IMG/VR virus record: IMGVR_UViG_3300028048_000043
Reading direction: 5' to 3' (one strand)
DNA length: 49,554 nucleotides
DNA from: a virus
Taxonomy: Duplodnaviria > Heunggongvirae > Uroviricota > Caudoviricetes
Position 1 is the first letter of the stretch. Every line of letters starts with the position of its first letter. Position numbers and translations under genes: made by a program. This document shows positions 4,025 to 42,826 of this stretch, one piece after another. The notes under the pieces were generated by a model. That model had not been told where the DNA came from, ran no database searches, and saw nothing but the letters and a program-made list of their open reading frames with translations.

Positions 4025-4830
4025 TATAAGGCTGAGTCTTGACCTATACGCTTTCCATTTTCATCCGTTTCCGGACTAGAACACATCCCTGCTTCCAGAG
4101 ATAGGAAAGATGCAGACGGATTCTAGGTTCCGCAACCACTACACTGTGCTATATAAGGTACTTGTTTCTGCCCTAACTCCTTGCGAGATTCGAAGGCGCG
4201 ACCCTCCTATTAGTTGCATACTTCTTTCGCTTTCGGCGCTTTCCTTGCGGTACTCATGCGACCACCATATTGCAGGTGGATAACTGCATTGTCACACAGC
4301 GTGCACAGCACTTTTGCTTGATTGATAAAATATTACTTTTAAGATGTTTTGTCTCATCCATAAGAGATATCATCGCACAAGATTTGACCGTTTGAAAGAC
4401 GTGGCTGTGCTCCAATACCATACCACCTTTTGAGTGGACTAGGTATGTACGCCTTTCTGCTTTTGTCTGCCAAGACTACTCACTGTACTTCTCACGTTAA
4501 TCCTACCATTTCTGATACCAGTGCCACCTGATACATGGTATTGGCATACCACATAGGACTAGAAAATTCCTCACATGCTCTGTAAGATTGGCAATCTTTC
4601 TGAGCGTGTGCATTCCCACTGTGTCGGAGTTACCTCCCAAGCAGACGCGGTCAACGCCTGCACCTTTAGCTATCAGTCCTGCCCGGACTTACAAACCACC
4701 AAAGGCTTGAGGAATGGCTTTCGCATGGAGAGGATTTCTCCTCCGCCGAGTCGGTAATCTTGTGAACACCGAGACGACTTTACTTGCTTATGAATTCGCA
4801 AGTTATCCTATTGACGGGAAGCCCGCCATT
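4025..4830 (-). ncRNA. GOLLD-like giant structured ncRNA (boundaries approximate)
   Basis: ~800 nt without credible ORF, hairpin-rich, downstream of tandem promoters, among tRNAs; minus-strand motifs GAGTAG, GCAAAAGTG, CTCGCAAGG and terminal GACTCAGCCT that I recall from GOLLD 3' domains. Confidence 0.7.
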
Positions 4831-5009: not shown

Positions 5010-5099
5010 CGGTATTTATTTGAAAAAACAAAATATTTTTGCAACTTTTTTACAAAAATTTTTGCATCTTTTGATAATACGTTCATTTACAACGAATTG

Positions 5100-5501
5100 T
5101 GGAGACGGGCGGAACCGCACCGCCGTGTTCAAATCTCTTACATAACTTTCTACACGTTTATTTTCTCTTATAATTTGCTGTCAGAAAAAGAGAAACAGAA
5201 CCTGAACAGCCTTCCTTCGATTTAGCGAACATCGATACGAAGGGTTTCGATGCTGCTCTCCGGTTAATGATGATGCTTCATGTTGCAGAATATACCGAAG
5301 ACAGAAAACTTCTGATGAAGCACTCGTCCCGAAGCTGCCTTGGCTCCGATGAATTAAGTTAACCAACACAGTTGATTAAGCAGCGAGTTTGTAGTTGCTG
5401 TTGTCAGCTATTTCTTGACCACCGAGATTAACGTGCTAAATGACCGGCGCACGACGTGCTTATTGTGTTCGACAACTTGAGTCAAATTCTATATCGTCCC
5501 C
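5100..5501 (-). ncRNA. ssrA: tmRNA, tag (A)DNSNYKLAA
   Basis: GGGGACG/CGTCTCC-A acceptor stem with G3:U70, resume context ATAGCT-GAC, tag ORF 5405-5376 ending GCT GCT TAA; T-loop atypical (TGCGGTT). Confidence 0.93.
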
Positions 5502-5504
5502 AAA

Positions 5505-6440
5505 TTATTTACGTATGTTTCTTCGTTTAGCTATCAAGCTAACATAAGATTTGCTTATATTATATTTTTTAGCAATATATTTATGTTTCATTCCAGACAA
5601 ATAATCTTTAGCGAATGAATCAAGATCAATTTTCGCTATTATTGTATCTGTTCTTTGTTTTACTTTTTTGCCTATGATTCTTCCTTTAGTATAACCTTGT
5701 TTCAAATAGTTATCTAAAAGATCCGCGTTTATTTTAATTGACTTTCCATCATCAGACGTAACCCAGCATGTTCCGTATTGAGAATTTAAGACGCCTTTTT
5801 GTTTTCCACCGCTTTTTAATTTTATACGTATTTTTTCCTTCGTTTCCTCTGTGTGATGACGCCCCTTCCATATCGGTAAATATTCTCCAGATATTAGTTT
5901 AGTGTTATTCTTATCGACTAGAAAAATTTTGTTATGTTTATCTTTAACTGAAAATTTTCCTTTTGTTGGAGTAGAATATCTTTCTTTATTTTGGGCATAT
6001 TCATTGGCATCTATTGATTTAGTCTTTCCGTCATGACTATCAATAACTGTAACCATTCCTTCGCAAACACAGTGATATCTATCTCTGTTTTTATGATACT
6101 CTTCACACTTTATCAACTTTTGTTTGTTTTCGTATGAGTCTAATACCCAGATTCTATTTATATTATTAAACACTTCTCCGCCTAGAGCTATATTATAACA
6201 TGAAGAATCTTCTATCATTTCTTCATTAACAACTTCCATTTCATAATTAGCCGCATCTTCTCTTGTATTAAAATATTTTAGAATCGTTTTCTTAAAATTA
6301 GATTCTCCATATTTCTTATACGCTTGATTTAACCTTACTCCACTACCCATATATCCATCGTCTATGTTGTTCGTAGAGTGTATTCCATAATAGAATTTTC
6401 CGTTTATAATATTCTCTATTTTGTAAAAATAATGATACAT
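5505..6440 (-). CDS. GIY-YIG (Seg-like) homing endonuclease with NUMOD3 motif
   Basis: YFYKIEN..GKFYYGIHST..YMGSG; KGRHHTEETKEKI; C-terminal HTH. Confidence 0.88.
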   Translation of the reverse strand: MYHYFYKIENIINGKFYYGIHSTNNIDDGYMGSGVRLNQAYKKYGESNFKKTILKYFNTREDAANYEMEVVNEEMIEDSSCYNIALGGEVFNNINRIWVLDSYENKQKLIKCEEYHKNRDRYHCVCEGMVTVIDSHDGKTKSIDANEYAQNKERYSTPTKGKFSVKDKHNKIFLVDKNNTKLISGEYLPIWKGRHHTEETKEKIRIKLKSGGKQKGVLNSQYGTCWVTSDDGKSIKINADLLDNYLKQGYTKGRIIGKKVKQRTDTIIAKIDLDSFAKDYLSGMKHKYIAKKYNISKSYVSLIAKRRNIRK

Positions 6441-6508
6441 TTTAATTACACTTGTTCGATATTTTTATTATTTATTAAAAAAATAATTCGAACTTTTGTG
6501 TATCTTTG

Positions 6509-9027: not shown

Positions 9028-9198
9028 CTGTTTTTTCACAGACACACCAATGCGCTTCGAATCACAATGATATGCCACCAAGTTTATAGTATTATAGACG
9101 ACCTAACGTCCACGCCATATTGCTTGCAAGACTTACTGGCATTTATGTTGAGCCCAGCGACAAACTTGGAAACGCAATTTGAGGACTCTAACATATTG

Positions 9199-9271
9199 TG
9201 CATCCGACAGGACTCGAACCCGCACTCGCATATTTTAGGGACATGCTGCCCAACCATCGGGCTACGGATGC
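9199..9271 (-). tRNA. Arg-like tRNA body with ambiguous anticodon (CTA in a 7-nt loop, or CCT in a 9-nt loop)
   Basis: GCATCCG/CGGATGC-A; GCATGT-CCCTAAA-ATATGC. Confidence 0.7.
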
Positions 9272-9319: not shown

Positions 9320-9637
9320 TCAGGCTACAAGTTTGTAATTCCTGAACATTGTTCCGTCATCCTCCACCGCAATCGAAGTGAGCTTTCCTCCAAGGTCAGG
9401 TTCCTGAAAACAGGAAAAATCCTTGTCATTCATTCTCAACCTATATCTGACTTTCTCAACGTTTCCGTAAAGATATATCAGATAATTGTTCTTCCATTCA
9501 CTGTCTGGATGATCCAGAAGAAACTGGGCTACAGCGTGACCGCCTTGAACACACCCGTAAACGGGTGACAAAGACTCGTCAATTATGACGTAAAGTCTTT
9601 TAGGCTGCTGTGGAAGACTCGAACTTTGATTCATCAT
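9320..9637 (-). CDS. peptidyl-tRNA hydrolase 2-like protein
   Basis: LYVIIDESLS..VQGGHAVAQF..FQEPDLGGKLTSIA pattern of PTH2-family proteins. Confidence 0.78.
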   Translation of the reverse strand: MMNQSSSLPQQPKRLYVIIDESLSPVYGCVQGGHAVAQFLLDHPDSEWKNNYLIYLYGNVEKVRYRLRMNDKDFSCFQEPDLGGKLTSIAVEDDGTMFRNYKLVA

Positions 9638-10412: not shown

Positions 10413-10589
10413 TAGGTACAGTCCTTTATCGGTATGGACTGTAAGTACCGTCCGGCTTTTACGGAGCCTGCTCTGTGCATAATGCAAGCACTAAACTCCA
10501 TCTCTACGTAAGGTCTCGGCAGGTATTACGTTCACCATTCCGTGTCCTGGCGTCCCAGGTGTCCTCGACCGAAATGAAGCACATGTTTG

Positions 10590-10760
10590 AGCGGGATAGG
10601 AGAATCGAACTCCCATATTCAGCTTGGGACTACTAAGTGGATTTGAACCACTGACCTCCGGTGTTTACCGGCACTCTCACTTCTGAGCTATAGTAGCCTG
10701 ATTCGTTTCGGAGAATCGTTCCGTATGAAGGCTGACATTCTACCGTTGAACTAATCCCGC
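10590..10760 (-). tRNA. tRNA-Gly(TCC) split by a 100-nt insert (10627-10726) containing a nested tRNA-like module
   Basis: Exons join to TCAGC-CT-TCC-AA-GCTGA; inner module GGCTACTA..TAGTAGTC with D arm, CCGGT-AAAC-ACCGG arm and T arm. Confidence 0.88.
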
Positions 10761-10787
10761 TTTTTTAAATCATTTATATTCTTAATG

Positions 10788-10955
10788 TGGGAGGTACTGG
10801 ATTCGAACCAGTGACCCTCTGCTTGTGCCCGTAGATTACGCTTCGAACGTAAACCAAACGAACATCGTTTTGTTTTCTCCCGTTCTACAGATAATCCGTC
10901 ACAGTGGATCATTCTGTATAAGGCAGACGCTCTGAACCGACTGAGCTAACCTCCC
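10788..10955 (-). tRNA. tRNA-Val(TAC) split by a 93-nt insert (10827-10919) containing a nested tRNA-like module
   Basis: Exons join to TCTGC-CT-TAC-AA-GCAGA; inner stem TCTGTAGA/TCTACGGG and T arm TTACG-TTCGAAG-CGTAA. Confidence 0.88.
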
Positions 10956-11222
10956 AAAAACGCCCATTCATCTTTCGTGTCGTCACAGCGGTCTCCTGAG
11001 GTCTTTCAGGATGCTAAACCGGTACATACCCTATACGCTACTTCCGCGCCTATATTTAGAGTTAATGCGCTTACCTACGTACACACTCTCTGTACCTTTA
11101 AATGCGTGGTCTCAAACCGCTTCTCTAATTCGGCTCGATTTACAACAGATGTCGTGTGCACCGGACTCTCCGGGATAGAAGCCATCTGCTTCGCGCAATG
11201 GATAAGATGAACTACAAGACTG

Positions 11223-11330
11223 AGCCAGAATCTGGATTCGAACCAGAGCAGCGCCTAAATCGCTATCGCGGACGGCTGTCGTTCTCCGTAGTGGCGTTCT
11301 ACCAGCGTTTCACTTCGCGTCGTTCTGACT
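11223..11330 (-). ncRNA. tRNA-like element with expanded body and no recognisable anticodon
   Basis: AGTCAGAA/TTCTGGCT stem stacked on T arm TCTGG-TTCGAAT-CCAGA. Confidence 0.65.
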
Positions 11331-11536: not shown

Positions 11537-11571
11537 ATCGTTTTGCAAATATACTGAATTTTTTGAAAAAT

Positions 11572-14777: not shown

Positions 14778-14784
14778 ATATTTT

Positions 14785-14932
14785 GACACCAATGGGGAGA
14801 GTCGAACTCCCATTCCGCTCGTTACGTACCGAGGGCAACCTTTACGAAGAATGACCTTCCTCTTCTACTCCCGGAAATTTGATCAGTCTTTCCGGTCCGC
14901 GCTGGTATACCAGATTCCCAGTCACATGGTGT
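14785..14932 (-). ncRNA. tRNA-like RNA with three internal hairpins in place of anticodon/variable arms
   Basis: ACACCATG/CATTGGTGT stem, T arm GGGAG-TTCGACT-CTCCC, hairpins CCGGAAA/TTTCCGG, GAAGA/TCTTC, CTCG/CGAG. Confidence 0.65.
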
Positions 14933-14936
14933 TCAT

Positions 14937-15039
14937 TGGTAGCGGGTCGGGAAGTCGAATCCCGTATCTAGAGGTTATGAGCCTCTAATGATTTCTAGAC
15001 TCTTGTTTAAGAAGTCCCTATCCGTTTCACTCCCCCGCA
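14937..15039 (-). tRNA. tRNA-Met(CAT) with ~27-nt hairpin insert in the D loop
   Basis: AGAGG-CT-CAT-AA-CCTCT, 1:72 mismatch, CCA encoded, insert GACTTCTT-AAAC-AAGAGTC. Confidence 0.8.
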
Positions 15040-15392: not shown

Positions 15393-15525
15393 GTCCTCGC
15401 GTCTGTGATACTGACAATTTTTATTTATCAAAAAACACAAGGGTCGTTTGAGCACGACCACGTCAGCCATCATTGGTATCACATCCGACCTGGTACTGTT
15501 TTGAGCTCTCATAAGTCCAGGAATT

Positions 15526-15600
15526 TGGTAGCGGGTAGGAGAATCGAACTCCTCTTCCAAGAATGAAAATCTTGTGTACTAACCACTATACGAACCCGCC
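15526..15600 (-). tRNA. tRNA-Glu(TTC)
   Basis: CAAGA-TT-TTC-AT-TCTTG, CCA encoded. Confidence 0.94.
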
Positions 15601-15739
15601 ATGCTGCCTTTTTACTACTCCCAGGAAGGCTAACCTGTCCGTTATACGTTGCACGAATAACAACTTAAAATCGCGAAAACAACGCGAATCAGAGGTTGTT
15701 ATGATCTACGTTCCGGCGTACGTTCCGGCAATTCTTTGA

Positions 15740-16204
15740 TTACTTTGCCTGATCTTCAGCGGCATCAACTGGAACATTTGTGATGCGACGGTCAATCTCG
15801 AATGTAAGACCTGTGAGGGTTTCCTTCACATATCCCTTAATGTAAATGTCGTAATGACCGGTAAAAGCATCAACGGCGACTGCTCCGTCAACCCACTCGT
15901 TGACACGTGCGGCTGCATCAGCAACCCTTGCATCGTTTGAAGCGAGAGCCTCATCGAGAACGTATGACTGTACTCCTCTGAGGTTGACAGCTTCTGTCAC
16001 ATTTGTCCAGCCGAAATCGAAGTTGGCTGCACCGTCCACACCGAAATGCCCACCAGTAAACTCAACGGTAACGGCTGCGTCGGTGTTTCCTGTTACAGCA
16101 AGATCATACTCGATTCCGAACTTTGCATCATTGTTGCACGAAGTGCAAGATGCCGCAAACAACATTGTGATCGCAGCAAGAATAATTGTAAAAAACTTAC
16201 GCAT
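15740..16204 (-). CDS. lipoprotein
   Basis: Signal peptide with lipobox LFAASC; codon usage looks highly expressed. Confidence 0.8.
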   Translation of the reverse strand: MRKFFTIILAAITMLFAASCTSCNNDAKFGIEYDLAVTGNTDAAVTVEFTGGHFGVDGAANFDFGWTNVTEAVNLRGVQSYVLDEALASNDARVADAAARVNEWVDGAVAVDAFTGHYDIYIKGYVKETLTGLTFEIDRRITNVPVDAAEDQAK

Positions 16205-16234
16205 AAAATTTAATTTATTTTGTGAAAAAAGTTG

Positions 16235-16438
16235 CGGAGTTGGCAGGATTCAAACCTGCGATGACCATCAGATGAAACATCGAGCCAGGCGTTTTCCAAA
16301 GGCAACCACACCTGAGTCTTCTGCCATTTTCAACATCGATGTATTTTCAACTATGGTGTTGCGCTCTGAGCGCATCTTACAATTAACGAGGGCTTGATGT
16401 AATCTCCCCACGACCTTCGATCTCTCAGCCACAACTCC
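16235..16438 (-). ncRNA. 204-nt Ser-like tRNA shell around a large insert
   Basis: GGAGTTG/CAACTCC-G, Ser-type start TGGCTGAG..GAAGG, T arm GCAGG-TTTGAAT-CCTGC. Confidence 0.68.
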
Positions 16439-16549
16439 AGTATGCTTTTGCGGATTTGCATTAACCGTATTGGTAGTGAGGCTTTATCGCTTCTCACCAA
16501 GGCTGCGTCTGGCTTTACAGACGGATTCTTCACGTGAATTAAAAATTTA

Positions 16550-17290
16550 GATCCGGCATCTTCATAGCGGTGACTCGATGGGCGGCTCGTCAGCTCTCTT
16601 CCGCACCGATGCTCACTATTTATACTGTCAGTTTCTCAGTATCCTGACCAAACTGTATTGTTAGAGGTATTTTTAACGTGCTCCCTCCTTTCCCACGTAT
16701 TTGCGGCAGTGACTCCGCATCAACCGTTTACTTCACTGCTCACGGTCAACATAGCAGGGCTTTCGCGTGAGTAACAACCTCACATGGCTTTACATTACTG
16801 CAAAGACGGCACCGCTGCCGTAGCCACATCCATAAGACATTCGCTACTAAAGGTTCGTCGCGTGGACTCTAGAGATTAGGTCGTTTAACGGACTAGTTGT
16901 CGGTACGACCACCTTATCGCAACTACTCATTGTTACTCCAGATTCGCTTATTCCTTATGGACATATACAGACAACATCGGCACCGCGCTGAATTTACGTT
17001 TTAATCTTGAATGTGGTCTTAAGCAGAGGCATCTGTTCGTCCCGTTTAATGGGTAAGCTTGCCGTTTAACCACTCCGCCGCTCTCGGTTCTTATTGCCTA
17101 ACGAATTTGTCTGATGTTTTTACGGATCAGCATTAACCGTATTCACGCCGAACCAGCAAGTCTGGCCGACTACTTTTATTGTTTAACGTGGAGTAGACAC
17201 CCTGTCAGAACAGACTCGCGATAACGTCCGCTCACTCATAACTCCATTACTGAGGTGTTTTCCGTTTTAGGCAGAACACCAAACCTAATA
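16550..17290 (-). ncRNA. candidate large structured ncRNA (~740 nt, unidentified)
   Basis: No ORF of 60 aa or more, GC higher than genes, repeated CGTTAAA pseudoknot units; strand inferred from the array. Confidence 0.55.
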
Positions 17291-17576
17291 CACAACCATC
17301 ACCAGCAAAAGTTTTATTGCAGTTGAACCTTGCAAGAGCATTGTCATAGTATCCCATATGTGAACTCGATCATTCGACCTGAACACGGCGACAACCGATT
17401 TTTTACACAACCTACTATAGTTGCAACGCCTCGCGGCGATTCGTCCATAACTATGACAACACAATCCAACCACATCTGTTTTAAACTACGTACTCCAATG
17501 CGAGCCCGCCTCCGATTTTCACGGCGATCTATGATGCTGTTAAGTCATGAGGAGTTATCCTCTGCGACAAATGATT

Positions 17577-17699
17577 TTGATGGTACCGGACTTGAACCGA
17601 CAAGTTTGGAACAATCTACTGCTCTTCCACACCGTTTTTCTCCATGAGTAGAAATATTGGATAAGAACAGTCGTGTTTACCTGTTTCCACCAACCATCA
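17577..17699 (-). ncRNA. Leu-like tRNA shell with extended anticodon arm/insert
   Basis: TGATGGT/ACCATCA-A; GTG-GAAACAGGTAAA-CAC; ACTGTTCTT..36 nt..AAGAGCAGT; T arm GTCGG-TTCAAGT-CCGGT. Confidence 0.7.
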
Positions 17700-17978
17700 A
17701 ACAGATTGTGTTATTGTTATAAAAAATAAATCAAGCGTTTTCGACCTGTATATTCACATACCATTTCAGGTAAACTACCGCTTACGAGTCTGACTCTCTG
17801 CTCGTGCGCGGGGTGGTTGTCGATCCACCGTTTCTTGATTTGATTAAAGAGCATCACTCCGTTTCGAACCAGAATGAATTGTTACCTGGCGTGCTTGTCT
17901 GTCCTATACACCATTGTCCTGTAACGAGCGATGAACCCCCGTTAGCCTCACGGGTCCTCACCTCCAGGTATCTCTTAT

Positions 17979-18178
17979 TGGTAGCGACCTACGACTTCCA
18001 CGTAAATACCCCTCTATGCATGGGGCGTGATAACTCCAAACCTGTTTCTTACTCCTTATCGAGATTGTGCAATCTGTCAAAGTTTCATACTAAAGGACTC
18101 AGTCAAACCATCACAGGCGCTAGCATTTCCTGCTACATTGATTGAACTTTTTACAGGCTCATATTTCACTAAATCGCA
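17979..18178 (-). ncRNA. 200-nt tRNA-like RNA (CAT anticodon, giant D-loop insert, CCA end), copy 1
   Basis: TGCGATT/GGTCGCT-ACCA; GTGA..TCAC D stem; CCCCA-TG-CAT-AG-AGGGG; homologous to 22395-22592. Confidence 0.8.
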
Positions 18179-18210
18179 AATTTCTAACTGATTTATTATC
18201 AGTATTTTTG

Positions 18211-18287
18211 CGGTGCGTATGGGAATCGAACCCATCTGAATCTCCTGAGTGACAGTCAGGCGTCCACACCATGCAGACCCACACACC
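18211..18287 (-). tRNA. tRNA-Asp(GTC)
   Basis: CCTGA-CT-GTC-AC-TCAGG, G73. Confidence 0.92.
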
Positions 18288-19084
18288 TATTCGATTTTAA
18301 TTGTCCCGTTTTCTATTAATTTGTGATGATTAGGGCACACCCACATAAGATTGTTTTTATCATTTATTTCTGAAATTTTTGAATGTGGATCAAAATCTTT
18401 TATTGCTTTTATGTGATGAACCTCTAATATTGAATCAAGCTCATGGTTATGACAAATTTCGCAAACTTTTTCTCTTGACTCGTCTTCCAATAAAATCTTT
18501 TTTGCCATTTTTCTTATCTCTGTACATCTAGATGCCAGATATGGTAATCTTTTGTCATACCCAATGTAATACCCAAGCTCTCTATTTAACATTTTATATG
18601 ATGATCTCTCTTTACTGCAATTTTTACAAAACACAGAAGAAGCAGACTTTCTTCCACCGCACTCTGGGCAAATTTCAGACGTTGATTCTTTTTTTCGTTT
18701 TGGATACTGTCTATTATTATATTTTGCTGAACAGCTTCTACTGCAAAAGAATTCAGAGTTTTCTTTTATTTTCTTATTATATGTGTATTTGCTTATTTCA
18801 AATTCTTTCCCACACTCTTTACACAGAACCTTTACAACATCTTTTTCATGGTCTAATCTTGAACACCGCTGTGAACAATATAACGGAATAACTTTTTTGT
18901 TTTTTGACAAATATCTTTTTGATTTATAAAACGTTGCTCCACAACGCTTACATGTAAACTCAAAAACATCACCACTTTTCGCATTATTGTAATTTTCTTC
19001 AGTAAATACCATACTATAACATTTTGTTTTATTATTTATTTCGAAAAACATAAAATAAAACAAAATTTCGAAAAAAAATTGCAC
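18287..19084 (-). CDS. HNH endonuclease with zinc-ribbon repeats
   Basis: Several CxxC..CSxxC units; CEIC..LEVHHIK..INDKNNLMWVCPNHH; true start probably an internal Met. Confidence 0.88.
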   Translation of the reverse strand: MQFFFEILFYFMFFEINNKTKCYSMVFTEENYNNAKSGDVFEFTCKRCGATFYKSKRYLSKNKKVIPLYCSQRCSRLDHEKDVVKVLCKECGKEFEISKYTYNKKIKENSEFFCSRSCSAKYNNRQYPKRKKESTSEICPECGGRKSASSVFCKNCSKERSSYKMLNRELGYYIGYDKRLPYLASRCTEIRKMAKKILLEDESREKVCEICHNHELDSILEVHHIKAIKDFDPHSKISEINDKNNLMWVCPNHHKLIENGTIKIE

Positions 19085-19170
19085 CGCACAGCCATTATTG
19101 TTTAATTCTAACTTTATAAAAAAGTTATCGTTGTTCCTGACAATAAGTATTCCTTCTTAGGCTACGTTTG

Positions 19171-19277
19171 CTAAGGATGATGGATTCGAACCACCGACCC
19201 ATGCTGGATCAAAGTAGGACTAACGTTTGAAAAACGGATTCCTCACACCAGCTGCTCTTCCACTGAGCTAATCCTTA
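19171..19277 (-). tRNA. Gln(TTG)-like tRNA with 33-nt insert at the 5' side of the anticodon loop, copy 1
   Basis: TAAGGAT/ATCCTTA-G; GCTGG-[33 nt]-CT-TTG-AT-CCAGC. Confidence 0.65.
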
Positions 19278-19313
19278 ATGTGAATCAAACTCAACTTTCT
19301 TAGGCTACGTTTG

Positions 19314-19420
19314 CTAAGGATGATGGATTCGAACCACCGACCCATGCTGGATCAAAGTAGGACTAACGTTTGAAAAACGGATTCCTCACACCAGCTGCTC
19401 TTCCACTGAGCTAATCCTTA
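19314..19420 (-). tRNA. Gln(TTG)-like tRNA with 33-nt insert, copy 2
   Basis: Identical to copy 1. Confidence 0.65.
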
Positions 19421-19575
19421 ATGTGAATCAAACTCAACTTTTTCTCATATCACGCAGTTTCACAGCTGTACGAAGCGCTGCGCCGAGGGATGAGTCTTAT
19501 AACCTTTAGGAAACAACCCGAGGACGATCGTCGTTTGCGCAGTGGTTGTAAGTGATATTGTTTGATTCAGTATTG

Positions 19576-19781
19576 CTGCCCGGGAGAATTTCGAAATCTC
19601 GACCCCCTGATTAAGACGCTATGGTTGGACTCGAACCAACATATTCAAGAAAACTTGATGCAAGTTCTTAGCTTACACCGGATTATAGTCCTACGATCTA
19701 CCTATGAACCACATAGCGTTCGATTCGTCACAGTGAATCAATCTGTGTCAGTCAGGTGCTCTGCCTCTGAGCTACCGGGCA
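19576..19781 (-). tRNA. tRNA-Asn(GTT) split by a 134-nt insert (19615-19748) containing a nested tRNA-like module
   Basis: Exons join to CCTGA-CT-GTT-AA-TCAGG; U1:A72, G73; inner ACGCTATG/CATAGCGT, T arm GTTGG-TTCGAGT-CCAAC. A shifted junction would give CTT (Lys). Confidence 0.85.
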
Positions 19782-20413
19782 ATATGCAAGGCTGATTGGT
19801 TGGCTCAGCCTTGTGAAGCCTCTGTGCATCTCCTACCATTGGTAGAAGCCATCAGGCAAGATTGAATTATCGTGTTTGGATCAACCCTGCGAAAACCTTT
19901 AGGTGATGAAATCACCAAACCGTACTCTCCACGGATTAGACCAAGTTCGCTTTCTTTTAGTGTGTGTAGGAATACGCCTACGTGCGCCAACCTGATGAAA
20001 CTTACACCTCAACTTCGTCCGCATGGTTGCCAACCATATTATCCCTGATTACATTTTTGGAAAACCTTCTAGAAAAATTATCCAAGAATCAAGTTTTCTA
20101 CCGCGTCGATTAGAATTGAAACCGTATAATTGGGTGGCGATCCTCAAAGCTGAAAATCAATTTAACCGATCTTGCGTTGTGGACATTGTACCTATAGCCA
20201 GAGTCCAACCAGCTTATTCCCCGCCTACCGGGGTACTCTTATGTGTCTTCACCGCTTATCGTCCGCTCCATACGGTTAACTAGTATTACATCGGTACGAC
20301 GACAGTTCGGCGTTCAGTTTGCTGCGACCGAGACCTATAGGCGAAACTCTCTAAGAATTTGCAACTTACAAAGAGAGCCAATTCAGTTGTATGTGTTCGA
20401 CTGAATTTTGTGA

Positions 20414-20543
20414 CCGTATAAAGAAACTTATGGGTTTCAATTTCTTGCTTCAACCTATCGCTACTTTTTAGCATAACATTTCTGTTTGGTTCATCCATAG
20501 TTGGATAGTCCACAAGCGTAAATTCGGAAGTACGGCTACCTAT
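20414..20543 (-). ncRNA. orphan IS607 TnpB omega-RNA scaffold/right end
   Basis: Highly similar to tnpB 3' end and right end at 40766-40905; no tnpB and no left end. Confidence 0.8.
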
Positions 20544-20554
20544 TTTTTAATTAG

Positions 20555-20703
20555 TGACCCCGACGGGGCTCGAACCCGTGACCCCAACATTGTGCTCTAA
20601 TAAAGTTACGATCTTTCTAAGTGACCAAATCTTTAGAGCAGAGATTTTAATCAGTTTACTCTGATAGAAAAGTGTTGTGCTCTACCAACTGAGCTACGAG
20701 GTC
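20555..20703 (-). tRNA. tRNA-Lys(TTT) split by a 76-nt insert (20592-20667) containing a minimal tRNA-like module
   Basis: Exons join to CAACA-CT-TTT-AA-TGTTG; inner TGCTCTAA/TTAGAGCA plus T-like arm AAAG-ATCGTAA-CTTT. Confidence 0.85.
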
Positions 20704-21068
20704 TTCCAGATTTCTGAAGCATTTATGTACACTTTATCGACTATTTTAAGGTCGCTCCAACGTGCCCAACCTAGGTACTCCTTCGGAGTGCTCCATACTT
20801 TCATATATTCCAAAAATCTTGCGTTGATGTAGGCTTACCTTAGATTTGCACCTCTCAAGGCGGGTTCCGTCTATTCTCGCCACCTCGCTACAGTTTCGAA
20901 CCTGTAGTATCTTTAAAGGATATTAAGGCACCGGACTTACCGTTATTCCTACTATACCATTTCACACGTGTGCACTACGCGGCAATTTTATACTTGGTAG
21001 CACTCTTTGTCACATCATGTCAAATCCAGTGACGGACCCTTCCGTTTGGATTAAGCAAGATATTTTTG

Positions 21069-21141
21069 TGGGGCTGGGCGGGGTCGAACCACCGACGCCG
21101 GGATCTTCAGTCCCGCGCTCTACCAACTGAGCTACAGCCCC
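21069..21141 (-). tRNA. tRNA-Phe(GAA)
   Basis: CGGGA-CT-GAA-GA-TCCCG. Confidence 0.95.
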
Positions 21142-21494
21142 GTTTTGTGATTTTTGTATCTGTGTAAAACGCTACTATTACACCACAAATAAATGTGGTA
21201 GGGGACTATCACCCTCACTTTCTTCACGATTTGCCACAAACACCGTTCCCCAGTTTTCATCTTAACATTTCATAACTTGGTCCCTCGGCGTTCACGTGCC
21301 TATTCCAAAACTCTAGTTTTAAGGAGTAACGTTACCTCTCCCTTAGTGCTCATTATGGCTGTACAACCGTGGTCTCGCACAAGCACCACCGATATTCACG
21401 CATATCTCCACGACGCGCTTTAAGGTCGGCGTAAACCGTTTTTGCACAAGTTCGCCATGAGGCTAATCCTGCATATATTTTTAAATCAATATTA

Positions 21495-22110
21495 ATCATA
21501 AAAAATCACAACTCAAGAAGATCGAAAAAGGTGTAAAAGCATAACCACCATAAAGAAATTCCGTCATTATGACGGACGGTCTTCCTCTTTCTGCGTATCC
21601 CGTATCCAACAATTGATTGTCTAATCTGTCAACGTAGCGGTACATCCGCCACGAACGTTCCTGTATCCGGTAGAACGAACACCGATCAACTGTGGCATCG
21701 TCACGGGCTTTACTTTTCCCATAAAACTTGACCAGAAAAATTTTTGTTGTGATTTGCCACTCTCGTGAAATGTTATCGCTTCGTGACTGTCTTGCGTCGG
21801 TCCTCTGCATTCTGAAGTTAAACGCGTTCCCTTTGGACTTCTTGGGGCTCTCTCTCCCAATAAATAACACTTCGAGCATCTTGTGGGAAGACCTGTCTAG
21901 CAATATCGACACTACGTCGAGGCGAGCACTGCTCGCTGGAAGTTCGCCGCTCTGTTGTCTTCCAATCCCAGAGTGATTCGGCTACATCGGAGGATATATC
22001 ATTTCACCTCTCTATAAGTCTAACCGGTAGTTCTGTTTTGTTTTTTCAGGCGTACGGATCGACGTTTTATGAGAAATCTTTCATTCTCACCTTACTTTTC
22101 CGACCAGACG
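21495..22110 (-). ncRNA. candidate large structured ncRNA (~600 nt, unidentified)
   Basis: Many hairpins (TCCGTCAT/ATGACGGA, GCGAGCA/TGCTCGC, TCGAC/GTCGA); overlapping ORFs look non-coding. Confidence 0.45.
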
Positions 22111-22128
22111 GATACCGATTTTGTTTTG

Positions 22129-22216
22129 TAGCGGGTGAAGGATTCGAACCCCCGACCAGATTTTGTCCAGTTCCGGCTTATGAGACCGGCGAGATGACCA
22201 ACTTCTCTAACCCGCG
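22129..22216 (-). tRNA. tRNA-Met(CAT), C1xU72 mismatch, long variable arm
   Basis: CCGGT-CT-CAT-AA-GCCGG; variable region AACTGGACAAAATCTGGTC. Confidence 0.85.
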
Positions 22217-22223
22217 ATATTAG

Positions 22224-22302
22224 TACGGACGGAGGGACTTGAACCCCCATACACCAATTACGCTGTTAATGACTGTGTATAAGACAGTGGCGATACGTCC
22301 GC
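22224..22302 (-). tRNA. tRNA-Ile(TAT)-like with no conventional D arm
   Basis: GCGGACG-TATCGCC-ACTGT-CT-TAT-AC-ACAGT-long variable arm-GGGGG-TTCAAGT-CCCTC-CGTCCGT-A. Confidence 0.78.
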
Positions 22303-22394
22303 ATTTATCGGTTAAGGACCCTGTCATAAATCCCGAAGCTCGACAACAGTCGAGATTAACCGATTTTGTTTTTATCAAGACCTAAGTCTCGTAA

Positions 22395-22592
22395 TGGTAG
22401 CGACCTACGACTTCCACGTAAATACCCCGCTATGTCCGGGGCGTGATAACTCCAAACCTGTTTTTTACTCAGCAAAAAAGTTTGCAACCTTTTCCGCCTT
22501 TCATACTAAAGGACCCAGCTAAACCATCGCGGGCTAGCCTCACCCGTTACATTGATTAGACTTTTTACAGGCACATATTTCACCAAATCGCA
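22395..22592 (-). ncRNA. 198-nt tRNA-like RNA (CAT anticodon, giant D-loop insert, CCA end), copy 2
   Basis: CCCCG-GA-CAT-AG-CGGGG; diverged homolog of 17979-18178 with compensatory stem changes. Confidence 0.8.
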
Positions 22593-22594
22593 AG

Positions 22595-22686
22595 TGGGAA
22601 GTGAGGGACTCGAACCCCCTTACTGTAAGGCCAATACGACAATTTGTAAACAGGGCGGATTTACAGTCCGCTGCCGTTAACTTCCC
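22595..22686 (-). tRNA. tRNA-Tyr(GTA) with no conventional D arm
   Basis: GGGAAGT-TAACGGCA-GCGGA-CT-GTA-AA-TCCGC-long variable arm-GGGGG-TTCGAGT-CCCTC-ACTTCCC-A. Confidence 0.82.
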
Positions 22687-22711
22687 ATATTCATATTCAC
22701 TTTATGCTTTG

Positions 22712-22833
22712 TCGGAGCGGCAGGACTCGAACCTCAACCTCTCGGCTTGTCCGACTGGATTTACAGCGAGTTTTACCGGTGCCTCATCAAACCAGCCTTT
22801 GCGAGTGCTCTACCATAACTGAGCTACACCCCG
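22712..22833 (-). ncRNA. Pro-like tRNA shell with ~50-nt structured insert replacing the anticodon loop
   Basis: CGGGGTG/CGCTCCG-A, normal D arm, insert stem GGCTGG/CCAGTC. Confidence 0.7.
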
Positions 22834-23504: not shown

Positions 23505-23716
23505 CCGTATAAAGAAACTTATAAAAACTTATGAGTTTCAATTTCTTGCTTCAACCTATCGCTACTTTTTAGCATCACATTTCTGTTTGGTTCATCCATA
23601 GTTGGATAGTCCACAAGCGTAAATTCGGGAGTACGGCTCCCTATAATACGGAAAACTTTCAGAAAAAGAAATAATTTTTCGTATTTTTTAATAAAATTTC
23701 ATTTAACAGTTAAATA
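23505..23716 (-). mobile_element. non-autonomous IS607 derivative (MITE): left end fused to omega-RNA/right end
   Basis: 23505-23644 matches 40766-40905; 23645-23716 resembles the left end 43076-43148; GG at both junctions. Confidence 0.85.
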
Positions 23717-23972: not shown

Positions 23973-24103
23973 TGTCAAAGAACTTCCCGGTCAGACCGGA
24001 ACTTTTTGCAAATGTACGGAATTATTTTTAATTTTCCAAACAATTTGCGATTTATTTTTGATTCGTCAGGAACAATGTCCTTCAGAATTCTGTTGCAAAT
24101 ATA
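23973..24103 (-). promoter_or_regulatory. tandem promoters plus boxA-like site at the head of the RNA-gene array
   Basis: TATATTTG 24096-24103, TACATTTG 24009-24016, AGTTCTTTGACA 23973-23984. Confidence 0.72.
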
Positions 24104-24830: not shown

Positions 24831-26027
24831 ATGCAGTTGGTAGAAAAGCACACAATCAGGTATACACATCCTTTGTACAGAGAATGTGACAGATTATGCT
24901 TTGCCTCCAAGAATATCTATAACCAAACATTATATCTTATAAAACAGGAATATGAAACCTCAAAGACTTACAACGTATTGAATGATTCCTACAGATATAT
25001 GAAGGATAAGGATTGCTTCTCCCAACTCCCCCAGAAAGTTGCACAGGCGACGCTCAGGTCCGTACATGCGGTATGCCAGTCGTTTTTCGGATTGCTGCGA
25101 GTGGCGGATAAAAACGGACAGGTCAGTTTCCCTCATTATTTGCATAAAACCAACGGCAGGTACGTAGCCACGTTCAACAGCCAAACGTTATCCAAGAAGG
25201 TGTTCACAAAGGCACATAAAATCAAACTGTCCCAGTGTAACGTGGAATTCTATACAAAGATAGACGATTTCAAATCAATAAACTGTGTCAGAATAGTTCC
25301 AAGGCTTGAACAATATGTGATAGAAGTTGTGTATACCTTTCCTGATACCGAGCCTCTGAAGTCGAACAGAATTTATGCATCAATTGACCTCGGCGTAAAC
25401 AATCTCGCAACGATAACGTATTCGAGCGGAGAGCGTCCAAAGATTATCAACGGAAGACCGCTGAAATCAATGAACCAATATTACAACAAACAACTGTCCC
25501 ATTATAAGTCGAAACTTGAAAAAATAAACGGACAGAAATCTTCGCATCGGATTAAGAGGCTCACAAACAAAAGAGCGAACAAAGTCAACGATTATCTCCA
25601 TAGAGCCAGTAAGTTTATTGTAAACGATATAAAGAACAAGGGAATAACGACTCTTATAATAGGAAAGAACGAAGGGTGGAAGACCGAGTGTAGCATAGGC
25701 AAAAAGAACAATCAGAATTTCGTTCAAATACCCCACAGTAGATTTATAGAAATGCTTTCATATAAATGCGAAAAGGCGGGGATTAAGGTAAAACTGCAAG
25801 AAGAAAGTTATACAAGTAAGTGCAGTTTCATAGACAATGAAGAGATATGTAAGCACGATGTTTATTGTGGAAGAAGGGTGAAGCGAGGACTGTTCGCTTC
25901 AAAGAAAGGCGTGAAAATAAACGCCGACGTTAACGGGAGTTACAATATTCTTCGAAAAGCAATCCCAAGCGCATTCAGCCATGGGATAGAGGGTTTAGTA
26001 GTTAACCCATTAGTTGTTGAACTATAA
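24831..26027 (+). CDS. tnpB: TnpB RNA-guided nuclease (IS200/IS605 family, no adjacent tnpA)
   Basis: SIDLGVNNLA RuvC-I, QEESYTSKCS, INADVNGSYNI RuvC-III; opposite strand to neighbours. Confidence 0.93.
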   Translation: MQLVEKHTIRYTHPLYRECDRLCFASKNIYNQTLYLIKQEYETSKTYNVLNDSYRYMKDKDCFSQLPQKVAQATLRSVHAVCQSFFGLLRVADKNGQVSFPHYLHKTNGRYVATFNSQTLSKKVFTKAHKIKLSQCNVEFYTKIDDFKSINCVRIVPRLEQYVIEVVYTFPDTEPLKSNRIYASIDLGVNNLATITYSSGERPKIINGRPLKSMNQYYNKQLSHYKSKLEKINGQKSSHRIKRLTNKRANKVNDYLHRASKFIVNDIKNKGITTLIIGKNEGWKTECSIGKKNNQNFVQIPHSRFIEMLSYKCEKAGIKVKLQEESYTSKCSFIDNEEICKHDVYCGRRVKRGLFASKKGVKINADVNGSYNILRKAIPSAFSHGIEGLVVNPLVVEL

Positions 26028-40779: not shown

Positions 40780-42027
40780 TTATAAAAACCTATGAGTTTC
40801 AATTTCTTGCTTCAACCTATCACTACTTTTTAGTGCCTCATTGCTGAGTCTGTCATCCATAGTTGGATAGTCCACAAGCGTAAATTCGGGAGTACGGCTC
40901 CCTATTATTCTTAAACCTTCTTCAAGTATATTCAACGCAGCATTGTAATCTCGTTCAATAATTTCTCCACAAACAGGACAAACCCACTGTCTGTCACTTA
41001 ATTTAAGTTCCTTATTGATATAACCACAATTATGACATGTCTTACTTGAAGGATAGAATCTGTCAACATAAACTATATCTCTTCCATACCATAATGCTTT
41101 ATATTCAAGCATCCTTCTGAATTCGCTGAAGTTCATTTCTGATATGGATTCTGCCAGTTTATGATTCTTAACCATCCCCTTCACATTTAAATCTTCCATT
41201 ACTATGACTTGGTTCTCATCAAGCAATGCGTTTGATACTTTATGGAGATAGTTAAGTTTACGATTCCTTATTTTTTCATTCAATTTAGCAAGCCTAGTCC
41301 TTGCTTTATTTCTATTGTTGCTTCCTTTCTGCTTTCTTGAAAGTTGTCTTTGCAATTTCTTTAGTTTGTTTTCTTCAGATTTCTTGAAATGAAGATTACC
41401 AAAGCATTCACCATCTGAAGTTACAAGAAAATCCTTAATGCCAAAATCAATTCCAATGGCACTATCAGTTGCTTTTAATTTCTTCCTGAAATCGCCATCA
41501 ACAAGAATTGAAAGGTAATATTTCTCAGAACAATTTCGTGATAGTGTGGCTGAACGGATTCCGCCTTTATTCTTCACAAGATAATTCGTATATTCATTAG
41601 AGCATTTAAACTTAATGTTACGGATGTTGGCAAGTGATAATTTATGTGTTGAATAATCATTTCTTTTTGATATCGCCTCCAAAGGAAATCTACATGACTG
41701 CTTATTATCATGCTTTGATTTGAACTTCGGAAATCCTTTGTGCTCATTAAAGAAATGAGAATAAGCATCCAATAAATCACGAATGGATTGTTTCAACACC
41801 TTAGTATTCTGTTCCTGTAACCACGAATATTTCTCATCCTTTGTGAGTTCATTATGAAAGAAATATCCAAGAGTTGTTAGGTTTTCAGAAGTTTCGTTTT
41901 CTTTATATGTGTTTATTTTCTTTTCAAGGCATTGATTATAGACAAACCTATAACACCCAAGCAATTTGTTAATTTGCATTGCCTGTGTATTATTTGGATA
42001 TATCCTTATTTTCAACGCCTTTAACAT
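40780..42027 (-). CDS. tnpB: TnpB RNA-guided nuclease
   Basis: [36 protein letters not shown]. Confidence 0.96.
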
Positions 42028-42033
42028 ACAATA

Positions 42034-42225
42034 TTATTTCTCAACAAAATATTTACATTCCATCCTATCTTTTGATAGTGCACCAGAACTTCTTGCCGAA
42101 ACCATTCTATACATAGATTTAACATTGCATACGAGAATAATTTTCACTTCTCTTCTGCATTTCAAGCGGCTTTGATTATCCACTCTCCATCTACAATCTC
42201 TACATATAAAATCAAGTTTTGCCAT
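42034..42225 (-). CDS. small Cys-rich passenger protein between tnpA and tnpB
   Basis: MAKLDFICRDC...MECKYFVEK overlapping tnpA end. Confidence 0.55.
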   Translation of the reverse strand: MAKLDFICRDCRWRVDNQSRLKCRREVKIILVCNVKSMYRMVSARSSGALSKDRMECKYFVEK

Positions 42226-42826
42226 TTTTCTTTCTCCTTTCAGCACTTCGTTTTCCGTAGAATTTTCCACTGAAACTTGCCAATAAACTCATCATATCAG
42301 CAGCCAATTCTTCTGTGTCAGAAACATCCATACCATTTATTACAATAACCTCACAGCCATAACTCTCAAACATCTTTTTGATAAACTTGAATTGAAACCT
42401 GGTCAATCTGTCTTTATGCTCAATAACGAGTTTATTTACTTTCTTGTTTATTATCAAATCCGTCAACCTAACAAATCCGCTTCTGTTATCATTTAATCCA
42501 CTCCCAACATCTTTGATTATGTGGGTGACAGTCCATTTTTTCTTTGCACAGTATTCAGAAAGTCTTTGTGACTGTCTATCCAAATCTCCTTTCTGTTTCT
42601 GTTCATTTGAACTTACTCGTGCATATGTTGCCACACAATCAACAGGTTTTTCAATTTCCTTTACTAAACCAAGAAATTTGTCCAAATCTTCAATCCTGTA
42701 TCTTCTATGTCCACCAGCGGTTTTAAGCGGTTTTAATTTTCCGCTTTTATCCCATAGACGGAGAGTATCATCAGACACATTTAGATATTCTGATGCTTGT
42801 TTTATATTTAGCAATCTCTCTGCCAT
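42212..42826 (-). CDS. tnpA: IS607 serine transposase
   Basis: N-terminal MerR-like HTH, YARVSS, GSGLN, EHKDRLTRF. Confidence 0.96.
   Translation of the reverse strand: MAERLLNIKQASEYLNVSDDTLRLWDKSGKLKPLKTAGGHRRYRIEDLDKFLGLVKEIEKPVDCVATYARVSSNEQKQKGDLDRQSQRLSEYCAKKKWTVTHIIKDVGSGLNDNRSGFVRLTDLIINKKVNKLVIEHKDRLTRFQFKFIKKMFESYGCEVIVINGMDVSDTEELAADMMSLLASFSGKFYGKRSAERRKKNGKT

Follow-up and report, generated by a model that had tools for sequence, protein, structure and literature searches.

A giant tRNA-derived phage RNA with a covarying D-loop domain and a predicted kissing-loop tip

Transfer-messenger RNA (tmRNA) and the bacterial Y RNA YrlA both join a tRNA-like end, not used for ordinary decoding, to a second domain; tmRNA, with alanine identity and a tag frame, lacks a D stem, and YrlA, which binds Ro through a stem, lacks an open acceptor end. 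Here we analyzed two copies, A and B, of a giant tRNA-like RNA on the minus strand of a 49,554-nt stretch of a large phage genome (IMG/VR record IMGVR_UViG_3300028048_000043), which holds a jumbo-phage tRNA cluster and is hereafter called the window; all coordinates are those of the whole stretch unless a sequence label precedes them (Table 1). Like the giant RNA, GOLLD and ROOL occur in phages close to tRNA clusters and have no assigned function, and together with OLE and ARRPOF they assemble through kissing loops and palindromic pairing (excerpts of PMC12286853 and PMC12990946). The giant RNA is much smaller than these four and carries its cargo within a tRNA; in GOLLD the nesting can be the reverse, with a tRNA lying within the larger RNA. 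Large tRNA introns have been described in Lak phages, which are Bacteroidetes-type gut phages (excerpts of 10.1101/356790).

An earlier note on this DNA, made from the letters alone, had described both copies and held that membership of a known Rfam family would undo its reading. No family matched either copy in a whole-window Rfam search and two narrow searches (best score 13.5 bits, chance level), which covered group I and group II introns, known ribozymes and riboswitches; the tmRNA, YrlA, GOLLD, ROOL, OLE and ARRPOF models also had no match on the copies. Of the tmRNA features, G3:U70 is replaced by C3:G70, and a tag frame and an RF00023 match are absent. Resemblances to the Alu domain of the signal recognition particle RNA, RNase P, T-box and hepatitis delta virus-like motifs were dropped, having no Rfam support. 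A full-text literature search covering few subscription papers and no supplements found no publication describing a large domain in the D loop of a phage tRNA. The RNA belongs to none of the known families tested, the only mode of action it resembled being that of a kissing-loop dimer.

A covarying domain in the D loop of a tRNA body

Copies A and B are 79.8% identical. As the earlier note described, both have an acceptor stem with a 1:72 mismatch (U1:U72) and an encoded ACCA (A73 and CCA), a GTGA/TCAC D stem, a 7-nt loop centred on CAT and a variant T arm, and they share an identical linker, GTCCTTTAGTATGAAA; G2:C71 and C3:G70 are also present. The D stem closes a D loop of 135 nt in A and 133 nt in B, in which helix P1 closes a three-way junction with a P2-P3 arm, carrying an internal loop, and a P4 arm. 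The P4 arm has invariant GAA and AGTA strands at its base, which we take to be loop-E-like, and 29 outer columns that are almost wholly variable (1/29 invariant). Just after P1, a junction strand GRGTCC can pair with GGAGTY as a candidate pseudoknot (5 pairs, 100% paired in the five copies described below, two one-sided changes, no double change); the GGAGTT strand contains the old G18G19 of the tRNA body. The acceptor and T stems comprise 7 + 4 = 11 bp, one short of the canonical 12, and the T loop reads TGGAAGT; RF00005 gave no match above 29 bits, and ARAGORN calls neither copy as a tRNA.

Homologues beyond these two copies, a search for which the earlier note had proposed, were found by pattern and protein-anchored searches in three other phages (L137:4349-4547, L130:676-873 and L140:6113-6310), giving five full copies in four phage sequences with pairwise identities of 74–88%. 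Across the five, 98.0% of 250 cells pair and 12 of the 50 modelled pairs have changed on both sides: two each in the acceptor stem, P2 and the anticodon stem, and three each in P3 and P4. None of 500 shuffles reached the observed values, and slid controls gave 30–52% and 1–3 pairs, a lenient comparison because the structure model was drawn by hand from the same five sequences. Single copies fold with energies no better than those of shuffles (z −0.1 to −0.4), so the support for the fold comes from covariation and not from stability. Between A and B, the compensatory differences reported earlier (CAGG/CCTG versus CGGG/CCCG, and the TTGCA-capped stems) are present, but the accompanying statement that differences concentrate in stems was wrong: outside the variable P4 arm they affect 11 of 84 paired and 11 of 88 unpaired positions and cluster in two peripheral arms.

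Ordinary folding energy and a patchy spread would fit a decaying pseudogene or a chance fusion. The covariation has already largely refuted this, copy B and the L130 copy are 86% identical while their neighbouring tRNAs are unrelated, and two diverged copies are kept in one genome, which leaves the idea hardly credible.

Pattern scans returned two true copies among three matches in metagenomes, and one among five and two among 33 in viral sequences, with zero matches when the spacing excluded the copy with an 8-nt anticodon loop. None of five matches in GTDB was true, and a Bacteroidota class yielded none in 401 genomes by pattern and none in two by model. In another viral scan, none of the 120 stretches listed, out of about 440, combined both stems convincingly beyond the known copies. 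BLAST of copy B found no match in phages or plasmids, and the domain model matched only inside this tRNA body (5 matches in 68 sources; 2 of 40 records).

Conservation is uneven along the molecule. The T loop and T stem (15/15 columns) and the variable loop (4/4) are invariant across copies, conservation within the tRNA body is lowest in the anticodon arm (9/18 columns invariant), and the most invariant stretches are the domain junctions with the adjoining T arm and D stem. Invariant unpaired junction residues, the GAA/AGTA strands and the candidate pseudoknot would make a compact core beside the invariant non-canonical T loop, as would suit a ribozyme or ligand sensor acting on, or signalling through, its own acceptor end; no family match supports such a role, which we consider quite improbable.

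Ancestry and the intron question

BLAST of the L140 copy gave a weak match (E 0.05) to tRNA-Met genes of Streptomyces phages. The match continues beyond the insert: tRNA-Met gene 109 of Streptomyces phage Annadreamy (NC_048719.1) is identical to L140 at 31 of 32 core positions (8–16, the D-stem 3' strand, G26, the anticodon stem and the TATT variable loop), a match chosen post hoc from 50,697 records and inflated by the constraints on any tRNA. The nine positions on the far side of the insert, all identical, lay outside the BLAST score. The same gene agrees with copy A at 26/32 and copy B at 27/32 (25–27/32 over the other four copies), and tRNA-Met genes of this type occur in 78 phage records. 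Unlike the giant RNA, the Annadreamy tRNA-Met has neither the domain nor the palindromic arm, and it has a 9-nt D loop (AATTGGTTA), a 5-bp T stem, a TTCGAGT T loop, a CTCATAA anticodon loop and G1:U72. Its D loop places the graft after position 16 and before G18G19 (D-loop 16/17). Since the graft, the T loop has lost the canonical UUC (U55-C56) and the T stem one pair. In the giant RNA, G18G19 can pair with CC of the domain (candidate pairing), and the T loop lacks the U55-C56 that they normally bind. Mainly because this repartnering and the loss of U55-C56 occur jointly, the domain looks like an integral part of the RNA rather than an intron. This descent from an ordinary phage tRNA-Met was overlooked in the earlier note, as was the self-complementary tip described below.

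The earlier note had offered a removable D-loop intron as an alternative, which would be akin to the tRNA introns of Lak phages and leave an odd tRNA-Met after splicing. An insert-less relative of the body does exist in the Annadreamy-type tRNA-Met, although it is distant and has a normal T arm, and the phage has an RNA ligase and anticodon-loop inserts with insert-less orthologues. When the insert was excised in silico, 20 of 135 cuts of B and one of 135 of A passed ARAGORN, whereas three anticodon-loop inserts passed in 47/55, 74/75 and 78/81 cuts (85–99%); the test is soft, as the short tRNA-Met gene at 14937 also passes in only 11/110. A spliced product would lack U55-C56 for G18G19, have an 11-bp top half, lack U33 and have a drifting anticodon, so that removal of the domain leaves the T arm and anticodon loop abnormal, unlike a Lak-type intron. 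Searches with patterns placed entirely 3' of the domain gave no allele that has this T arm but lacks the insert; they found L001, L002 and L129 (one phage) and L130, all domain-bearing. RNA contigs run unbroken over copy B, with no spliced joint, in two RNA runs of one sample, which is weak evidence given that a 70-nt product is easily missed, and the Rfam searches gave no ribozyme family. The anticodon-loop inserts of the window, some with a nested tRNA, are of the same kind as the Lak-phage introns (10.1101/356790), and the giant RNA differs from them in that its insert lies in the D loop, is always present and accompanies a remodelled body; this comparison rests on the paper without its Table S6, where a D-loop case is possible. 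We regard an intron as unlikely, and the RNA likely stays unspliced.

The tRNA-Met at 14937-15039, in which the earlier note saw a small version of a D-loop insert, does have an enlarged D loop but belongs to a separate short family with normal T arms, whose D loops measure 35 nt in the window, 35 nt in L194, 15 nt in L140 and 14 nt in L216. Its insert lies 3' of GG, it shares a GTGAAA D arm with the giant RNA, and the giant-domain model R2 does not match it.

Acceptor end, self-complementary tip and possible roles

In bacterial initiators the 1:72 mismatch, with 2:71 and 3:70, is read by Fmt, excludes EF-Tu and protects from Pth, and three G-C pairs of the anticodon stem are required for initiation (excerpts of PMC6393288). 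All five copies have a 1:72 mismatch, as U:U in four and as C:A in L140, where both bases have changed, together with G2:C71, C3:G70, A73 and CCA; G4:C69 is also present, and with CAU in four of the five copies these are the features shared with initiator tRNA-fMet. The remaining body differs from that tRNA in its 11-bp top half, its T loop without UUC, its 135-nt D loop, U11:A24, and variable U33 and CAU. The three G-C pairs 29-31:39-41 are absent (stems CCCCA/AGGGG, CCCCG/CGGGG, CCCCG/TGGGG, CCTCG/CGGGG and CCTCC/GGAGG). The loops read TGCATAG, GACATAG (twice), TATCATAG (8 nt, L137) and CTGATAT (L140), U33 is missing in A, B and L130, and CAU in a 7-nt loop with U33, as in initiators, was not found. 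The acceptor half of the earlier proposal, an initiator mimic carrying a cargo domain, therefore stands, but the anticodon arm does not conform; likewise CCA is kept in all homologues, but CAT gives way to GAT in L140.

An initiator tRNA that functions on the ribosome in its full form, appendage included, would account for the acceptor features and for CAU in four copies. Against this stand the anticodon stems, the U33 missing in three copies, the 8-nt loop and the GAU in one copy each, the non-canonical elbow with 135 nt in the D loop, and four other CAT genes with normal T arms in the window; we think it very improbable. The methionyl-tRNA synthetase (MetRS) reads C34-A35-U36, and the isoleucyl enzyme reads G34-A35-U36 with A73 (excerpts of PMC9976931); E. 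coli tRNAfMet with GAU is charged with isoleucine (excerpts of PMC7595197). Different amino acids are thus possible on different copies, which fits a mimic of the end that is indifferent to the residue. The MetRS modulator suggested earlier finds no support, nor does a decoding role, as the anticodon arm fails the initiator features, with CAT not fixed, and is the least conserved. The RNA likely no longer reads codons.

In B and L130 the P4 arm is tipped by TTGCAA, in L140 by TGTACA and in L137 by GCGGCCGC, always centred on the axis of the hairpin. An on-axis Watson-Crick palindrome of at least 6 nt is therefore present in four of five copies, in three different words; among background even-loop hairpins, 18 of 690 have such a palindrome of at least 6 nt and 37 of 690 one of at least 4 nt. 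Copy-A orthologues in contigs of runs X4 and X5 (two other studies, depth about 4) read TTGCGCAA and thus carry a fourth palindromic word, TGCGCA. A self-complementary loop kept through sequence change is what a kissing-loop homodimer would show, and pairing between two molecules is the simplest reading, because the inner two pairs are impossible within one hairpin. The sequences suggest that the RNA probably forms a homodimer through this tip. A second self-complementary word lies in the P3 loop (GCTAGC; GCTGGC in L140), without compensatory change.

With two self-complementary loops, the grafted domain could also work as a dimer, or as a ring or cage like GOLLD, ROOL, OLE and ARRPOF, while the tRNA body is a handle for processing or stability. 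Invariance is indeed highest in the domain junctions and the adjoining T arm and D stem, many tRNA bodies of the window have other inserts, a GOLLD-like stretch lies there below threshold, and oligomeric phage RNAs lie near tRNA islands (excerpts of PMC12286853 and PMC12990946). A pure handle, however, would need neither a 1:72 mismatch kept as both U:U and C:A nor A73-CCA in all five copies, and the P3-loop word, unchanged by compensation, may be a plain sequence motif. We judge this rather unlikely.

Our preferred reading, held at slightly less than even confidence, is an unspliced, non-decoding homodimer that displays two initiator-type ends as a decoy, aimed at proteins of the host that recognize the acceptor end of initiators; whether the acceptor end is functional we consider evenly balanced. 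An ordinary phage tRNA-Met body carries a covarying domain of 133–135 nt in its D loop, and its T loop lacks U55-C56 above an 11-bp top half. Instead of contacting the T loop, the old G18G19 would now pair with a CC in the domain, which would make domain and body a single fold. tRNA-processing nucleases would cut the RNA from a long tRNA-cluster transcript, and whichever synthetase the loop admits may charge it (methionine with CAU, isoleucine with GAU). The 1:72 mismatch would keep it off EF-Tu and Pth, and the P4 tips of two molecules would pair over 6–8 bp. Phage tRNAs are thought to offset tRNA-cutting defences (excerpts of PMC10264068 and PMC7824862). As to the target, we can only guess that the dimer sequesters an anti-phage tRNA-targeting enzyme, or Fmt or IF2, sparing the real initiator tRNAs of the phage.

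Several observations weigh against this reading. Only five full copies are available, all related, and the D stem, T stem, candidate pseudoknot and P1 show no double change among them. Whole-record model searches found the RNA in only 2 of 77 related phage records (2/48 and 0/29), so it is dispensable for most relatives. The second element recognized by Fmt, R11:Y24 (excerpts of PMC9976931), is absent, with U11:A24 in all five copies. A contig in run X5, of depth 4.4 and possibly in error, has U72G (U1:G72), U68C and a CAC anticodon and weakens the conservation of the mismatch. The tip of copy A is imperfect (TGCACA), and single tips are unremarkable against composition shuffles (p 0.02–0.58), the copies being related. 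An AtaT-type toxin is an unlikely target: AtaT, a dimer, engages the acceptor stems of two initiators and needs G4G5G6 (excerpts of PMC7595197), which the RNA lacks.

A more far-reaching picture is conceivable but doubtful as a whole, namely a new phage RNA class in which the elbow of a tRNA-Met is rewired around a pseudoknotted graft and two self-complementary loops build a dimer or ring with several charged initiator-type ends. Such an assembly might act multivalently, either luring anti-phage enzymes that target tRNAs or trapping initiation factors, with the paralogues of one genome differing in their tip words.

Genomic setting and neighbouring RNA genes

The minus strand between 3 and 23 kb has about 35 tRNA-family matches, a tmRNA and the sub-threshold GOLLD-like stretch, and genes for ClpP, dUTPase, RNA ligase, DnaJ and similar proteins lie beyond the cluster. 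The nearest relative is a 152-kb viral record (estimated 38% complete), and the sequencing runs containing the stretch are listed mostly as bovine gut. The 5' end of copy B abuts a tRNA-Tyr-like gene (22592-22686). The motif TAnnTTTGCAAA occurs 17 times on the gene strand of the window against 1.3 expected and fits the Bacteroidetes −7 promoter consensus TAnnTTTG; a sigma-70 scan stayed at chance level. Upstream of A and B the nearest such motifs lie at 24005 and 24092, and downstream the next is at 11542, so that A and B are likely in one long precursor. The copy B contig has depths of 176 and 71.7 in two RNA runs (X2 and X3, one sample), against 14 and 4.2 for glycosyltransferase gene contigs, and 70.2 against 82.1 in a DNA run; this hints at transcription, contig depth being unable to rank genes. 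RNA contig ends at 22395, 22399 and 22424 were rejected as RNA ends, being explained by a 34-nt stretch common to A and B. Protein coding was rejected, the sole overlapping open reading frame (17804-18145, plus strand) having no counterpart at copy B.

Gene-poor stretches between tRNAs (15394-18008, 19862-20463 and 21318-22424) have deep contigs in the RNA runs and likely hold further uncatalogued structured RNAs. A GOLLD-like RNA (4029-4457, minus strand; 70 of the 150 bits of the gathering score) lies next to the tmRNA, and ARAGORN calls the L137 orthologue in this region a permuted tmRNA. Exact tandem duplication of a 143-nt tRNA-like unit was seen at 19154-19439, and a 125-nt non-coding block is repeated at 20419-20543 and 23520-23644 (95% identity). 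Two IS605/TnpB-type genes (one with a resolvase) and HNH or homing endonuclease genes occupy 24831-26027, 40780-42826, 18287-19084 and 5505-6440; the HNH/homing endonuclease genes sit among the clustered tRNAs, and tRNA-Asp and copy A lie directly downstream of one of them.

Besides the two giant copies, the cluster has CAT-loop genes at 6508, 14703, 14937 and 22126, making six; the last (22126-22216) is of initiator type (C1:U72), has a long variable arm and is identical in L137. In related jumbo phages, normal-length tRNAs at L187:10497, L188:14471, L202:14682, L205:12754, L195:13066 and L212:6634 have initiator-type acceptors with G33 or broken anticodon loops (CGCATAA, CGTATAA, TGCATAA and others); those of L187, L188, L202 and L205 have CCCCA/TGGGG stems and G33. 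Since related phages carry such G33 tRNAs, odd derivatives of initiators are a recurring feature of this group of phages.

Intact acceptor and T arms with rebuilt or enlarged middles occur on the minus strand at 14784-14940, 16232-16438, 17574-17699, 11220-11329, 22709-22833, 22592-22686 and 22221-22302, none of which the models of the giant-RNA family match. The tRNA-Gly at 10587-10760 and a further tRNA at 19581-19783 (minus strand) have anticodon-loop inserts with nested tRNA-like genes (10625-10697 and 19613-19718), and a tRNA-like gene is also nested in the tRNA-Tyr at L140:5915-6112. A tRNA with a CTA anticodon (9198-9271, minus strand) directly follows a 105-aa hydrolase-like gene, in the same order in L130, L137 and L140; suppression of TAG by it is possible, although long open reading frames read in code 11. 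The anchor protein at 9320-9637 matched only a PHROG 'hydrolase', and nothing in PDB; a Pth2-like identity is conceivable for it.

Table 1 Features of copies A and B and of other RNA genes and motifs in the window.
Feature	Position	Strand	Details
Copy A, tRNA-derived RNA gene	17979-18178	−	200 nt; model R1, 221.6 bits (in training set)
Copy B, tRNA-derived RNA gene	22395-22592	−	198 nt
D-loop domain, copy A	18031-18165	−	135 nt; P1 GCCTGT/ACAGGT closes three-way junction with P2-P3 and P4 arms
D-loop domain, copy B	22447-22579	−	133 nt; fold as in copy A
P4 tip loop, copy A	18065-18072	−	TTGCACAA; imperfect palindrome
P4 tip loop, copy B	22481-22488	−	GTTGCAAA; on-axis palindrome TTGCAA; predicted kissing loop
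P3 loop word, copy A	18119-18124	−	equivalent of copy B word
P3 loop word, copy B	22533-22538	−	GCTAGC
Candidate pseudoknot strands, copy A	18095-18100 with 18032-18037	−	
Junction strand, copy B	22511-22516	−	GGGTCC; candidate pseudoknot partner of GGAGTT (22448-22453)
Anticodon-like loop, copy A	18014-18020	−	TGCATAG
Anticodon-like loop, copy B	22430-22436	−	GACATAG; no U33
Remodelled T arm, copy A	17990-18004	−	
Remodelled T arm, copy B	22406-22420	−	TACG-TGGAAGT-CGTA; 4-bp stem, no UUC
Acceptor 3' strand, A73 and encoded CCA, copy A	17979-17989	−	
Acceptor 3' strand, A73 and encoded CCA, copy B	22395-22405	−	
tmRNA	5097-5501	−	
Initiator-like tRNA-Met(CAT)	14937-15039	−	103 nt; 35-nt D loop, normal T arm
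tRNA-Val	10785-10955	−	anticodon-loop insert; insert-less orthologues in L137 and L140
tRNA-Lys	20552-20703	−	anticodon-loop insert; insert-less orthologues in L137 and L140
Nearest upstream promoter-like motif	24005-24016	−	TACATTTGCAAA; second at 24092-24103; next downstream at 11542

If our reading is true, a natural tRNA would have been turned into a multi-domain, self-assembling non-coding RNA whose ancestor is identified and whose graft point is mapped. It would give a direct experimental way to ask why so many odd tRNA-like genes occur in jumbo phages, since a 200-nt RNA is within reach of in vitro transcription; for RNA structural studies and engineering, a graft in the D loop that rebuilds the elbow would add a new natural scaffold.

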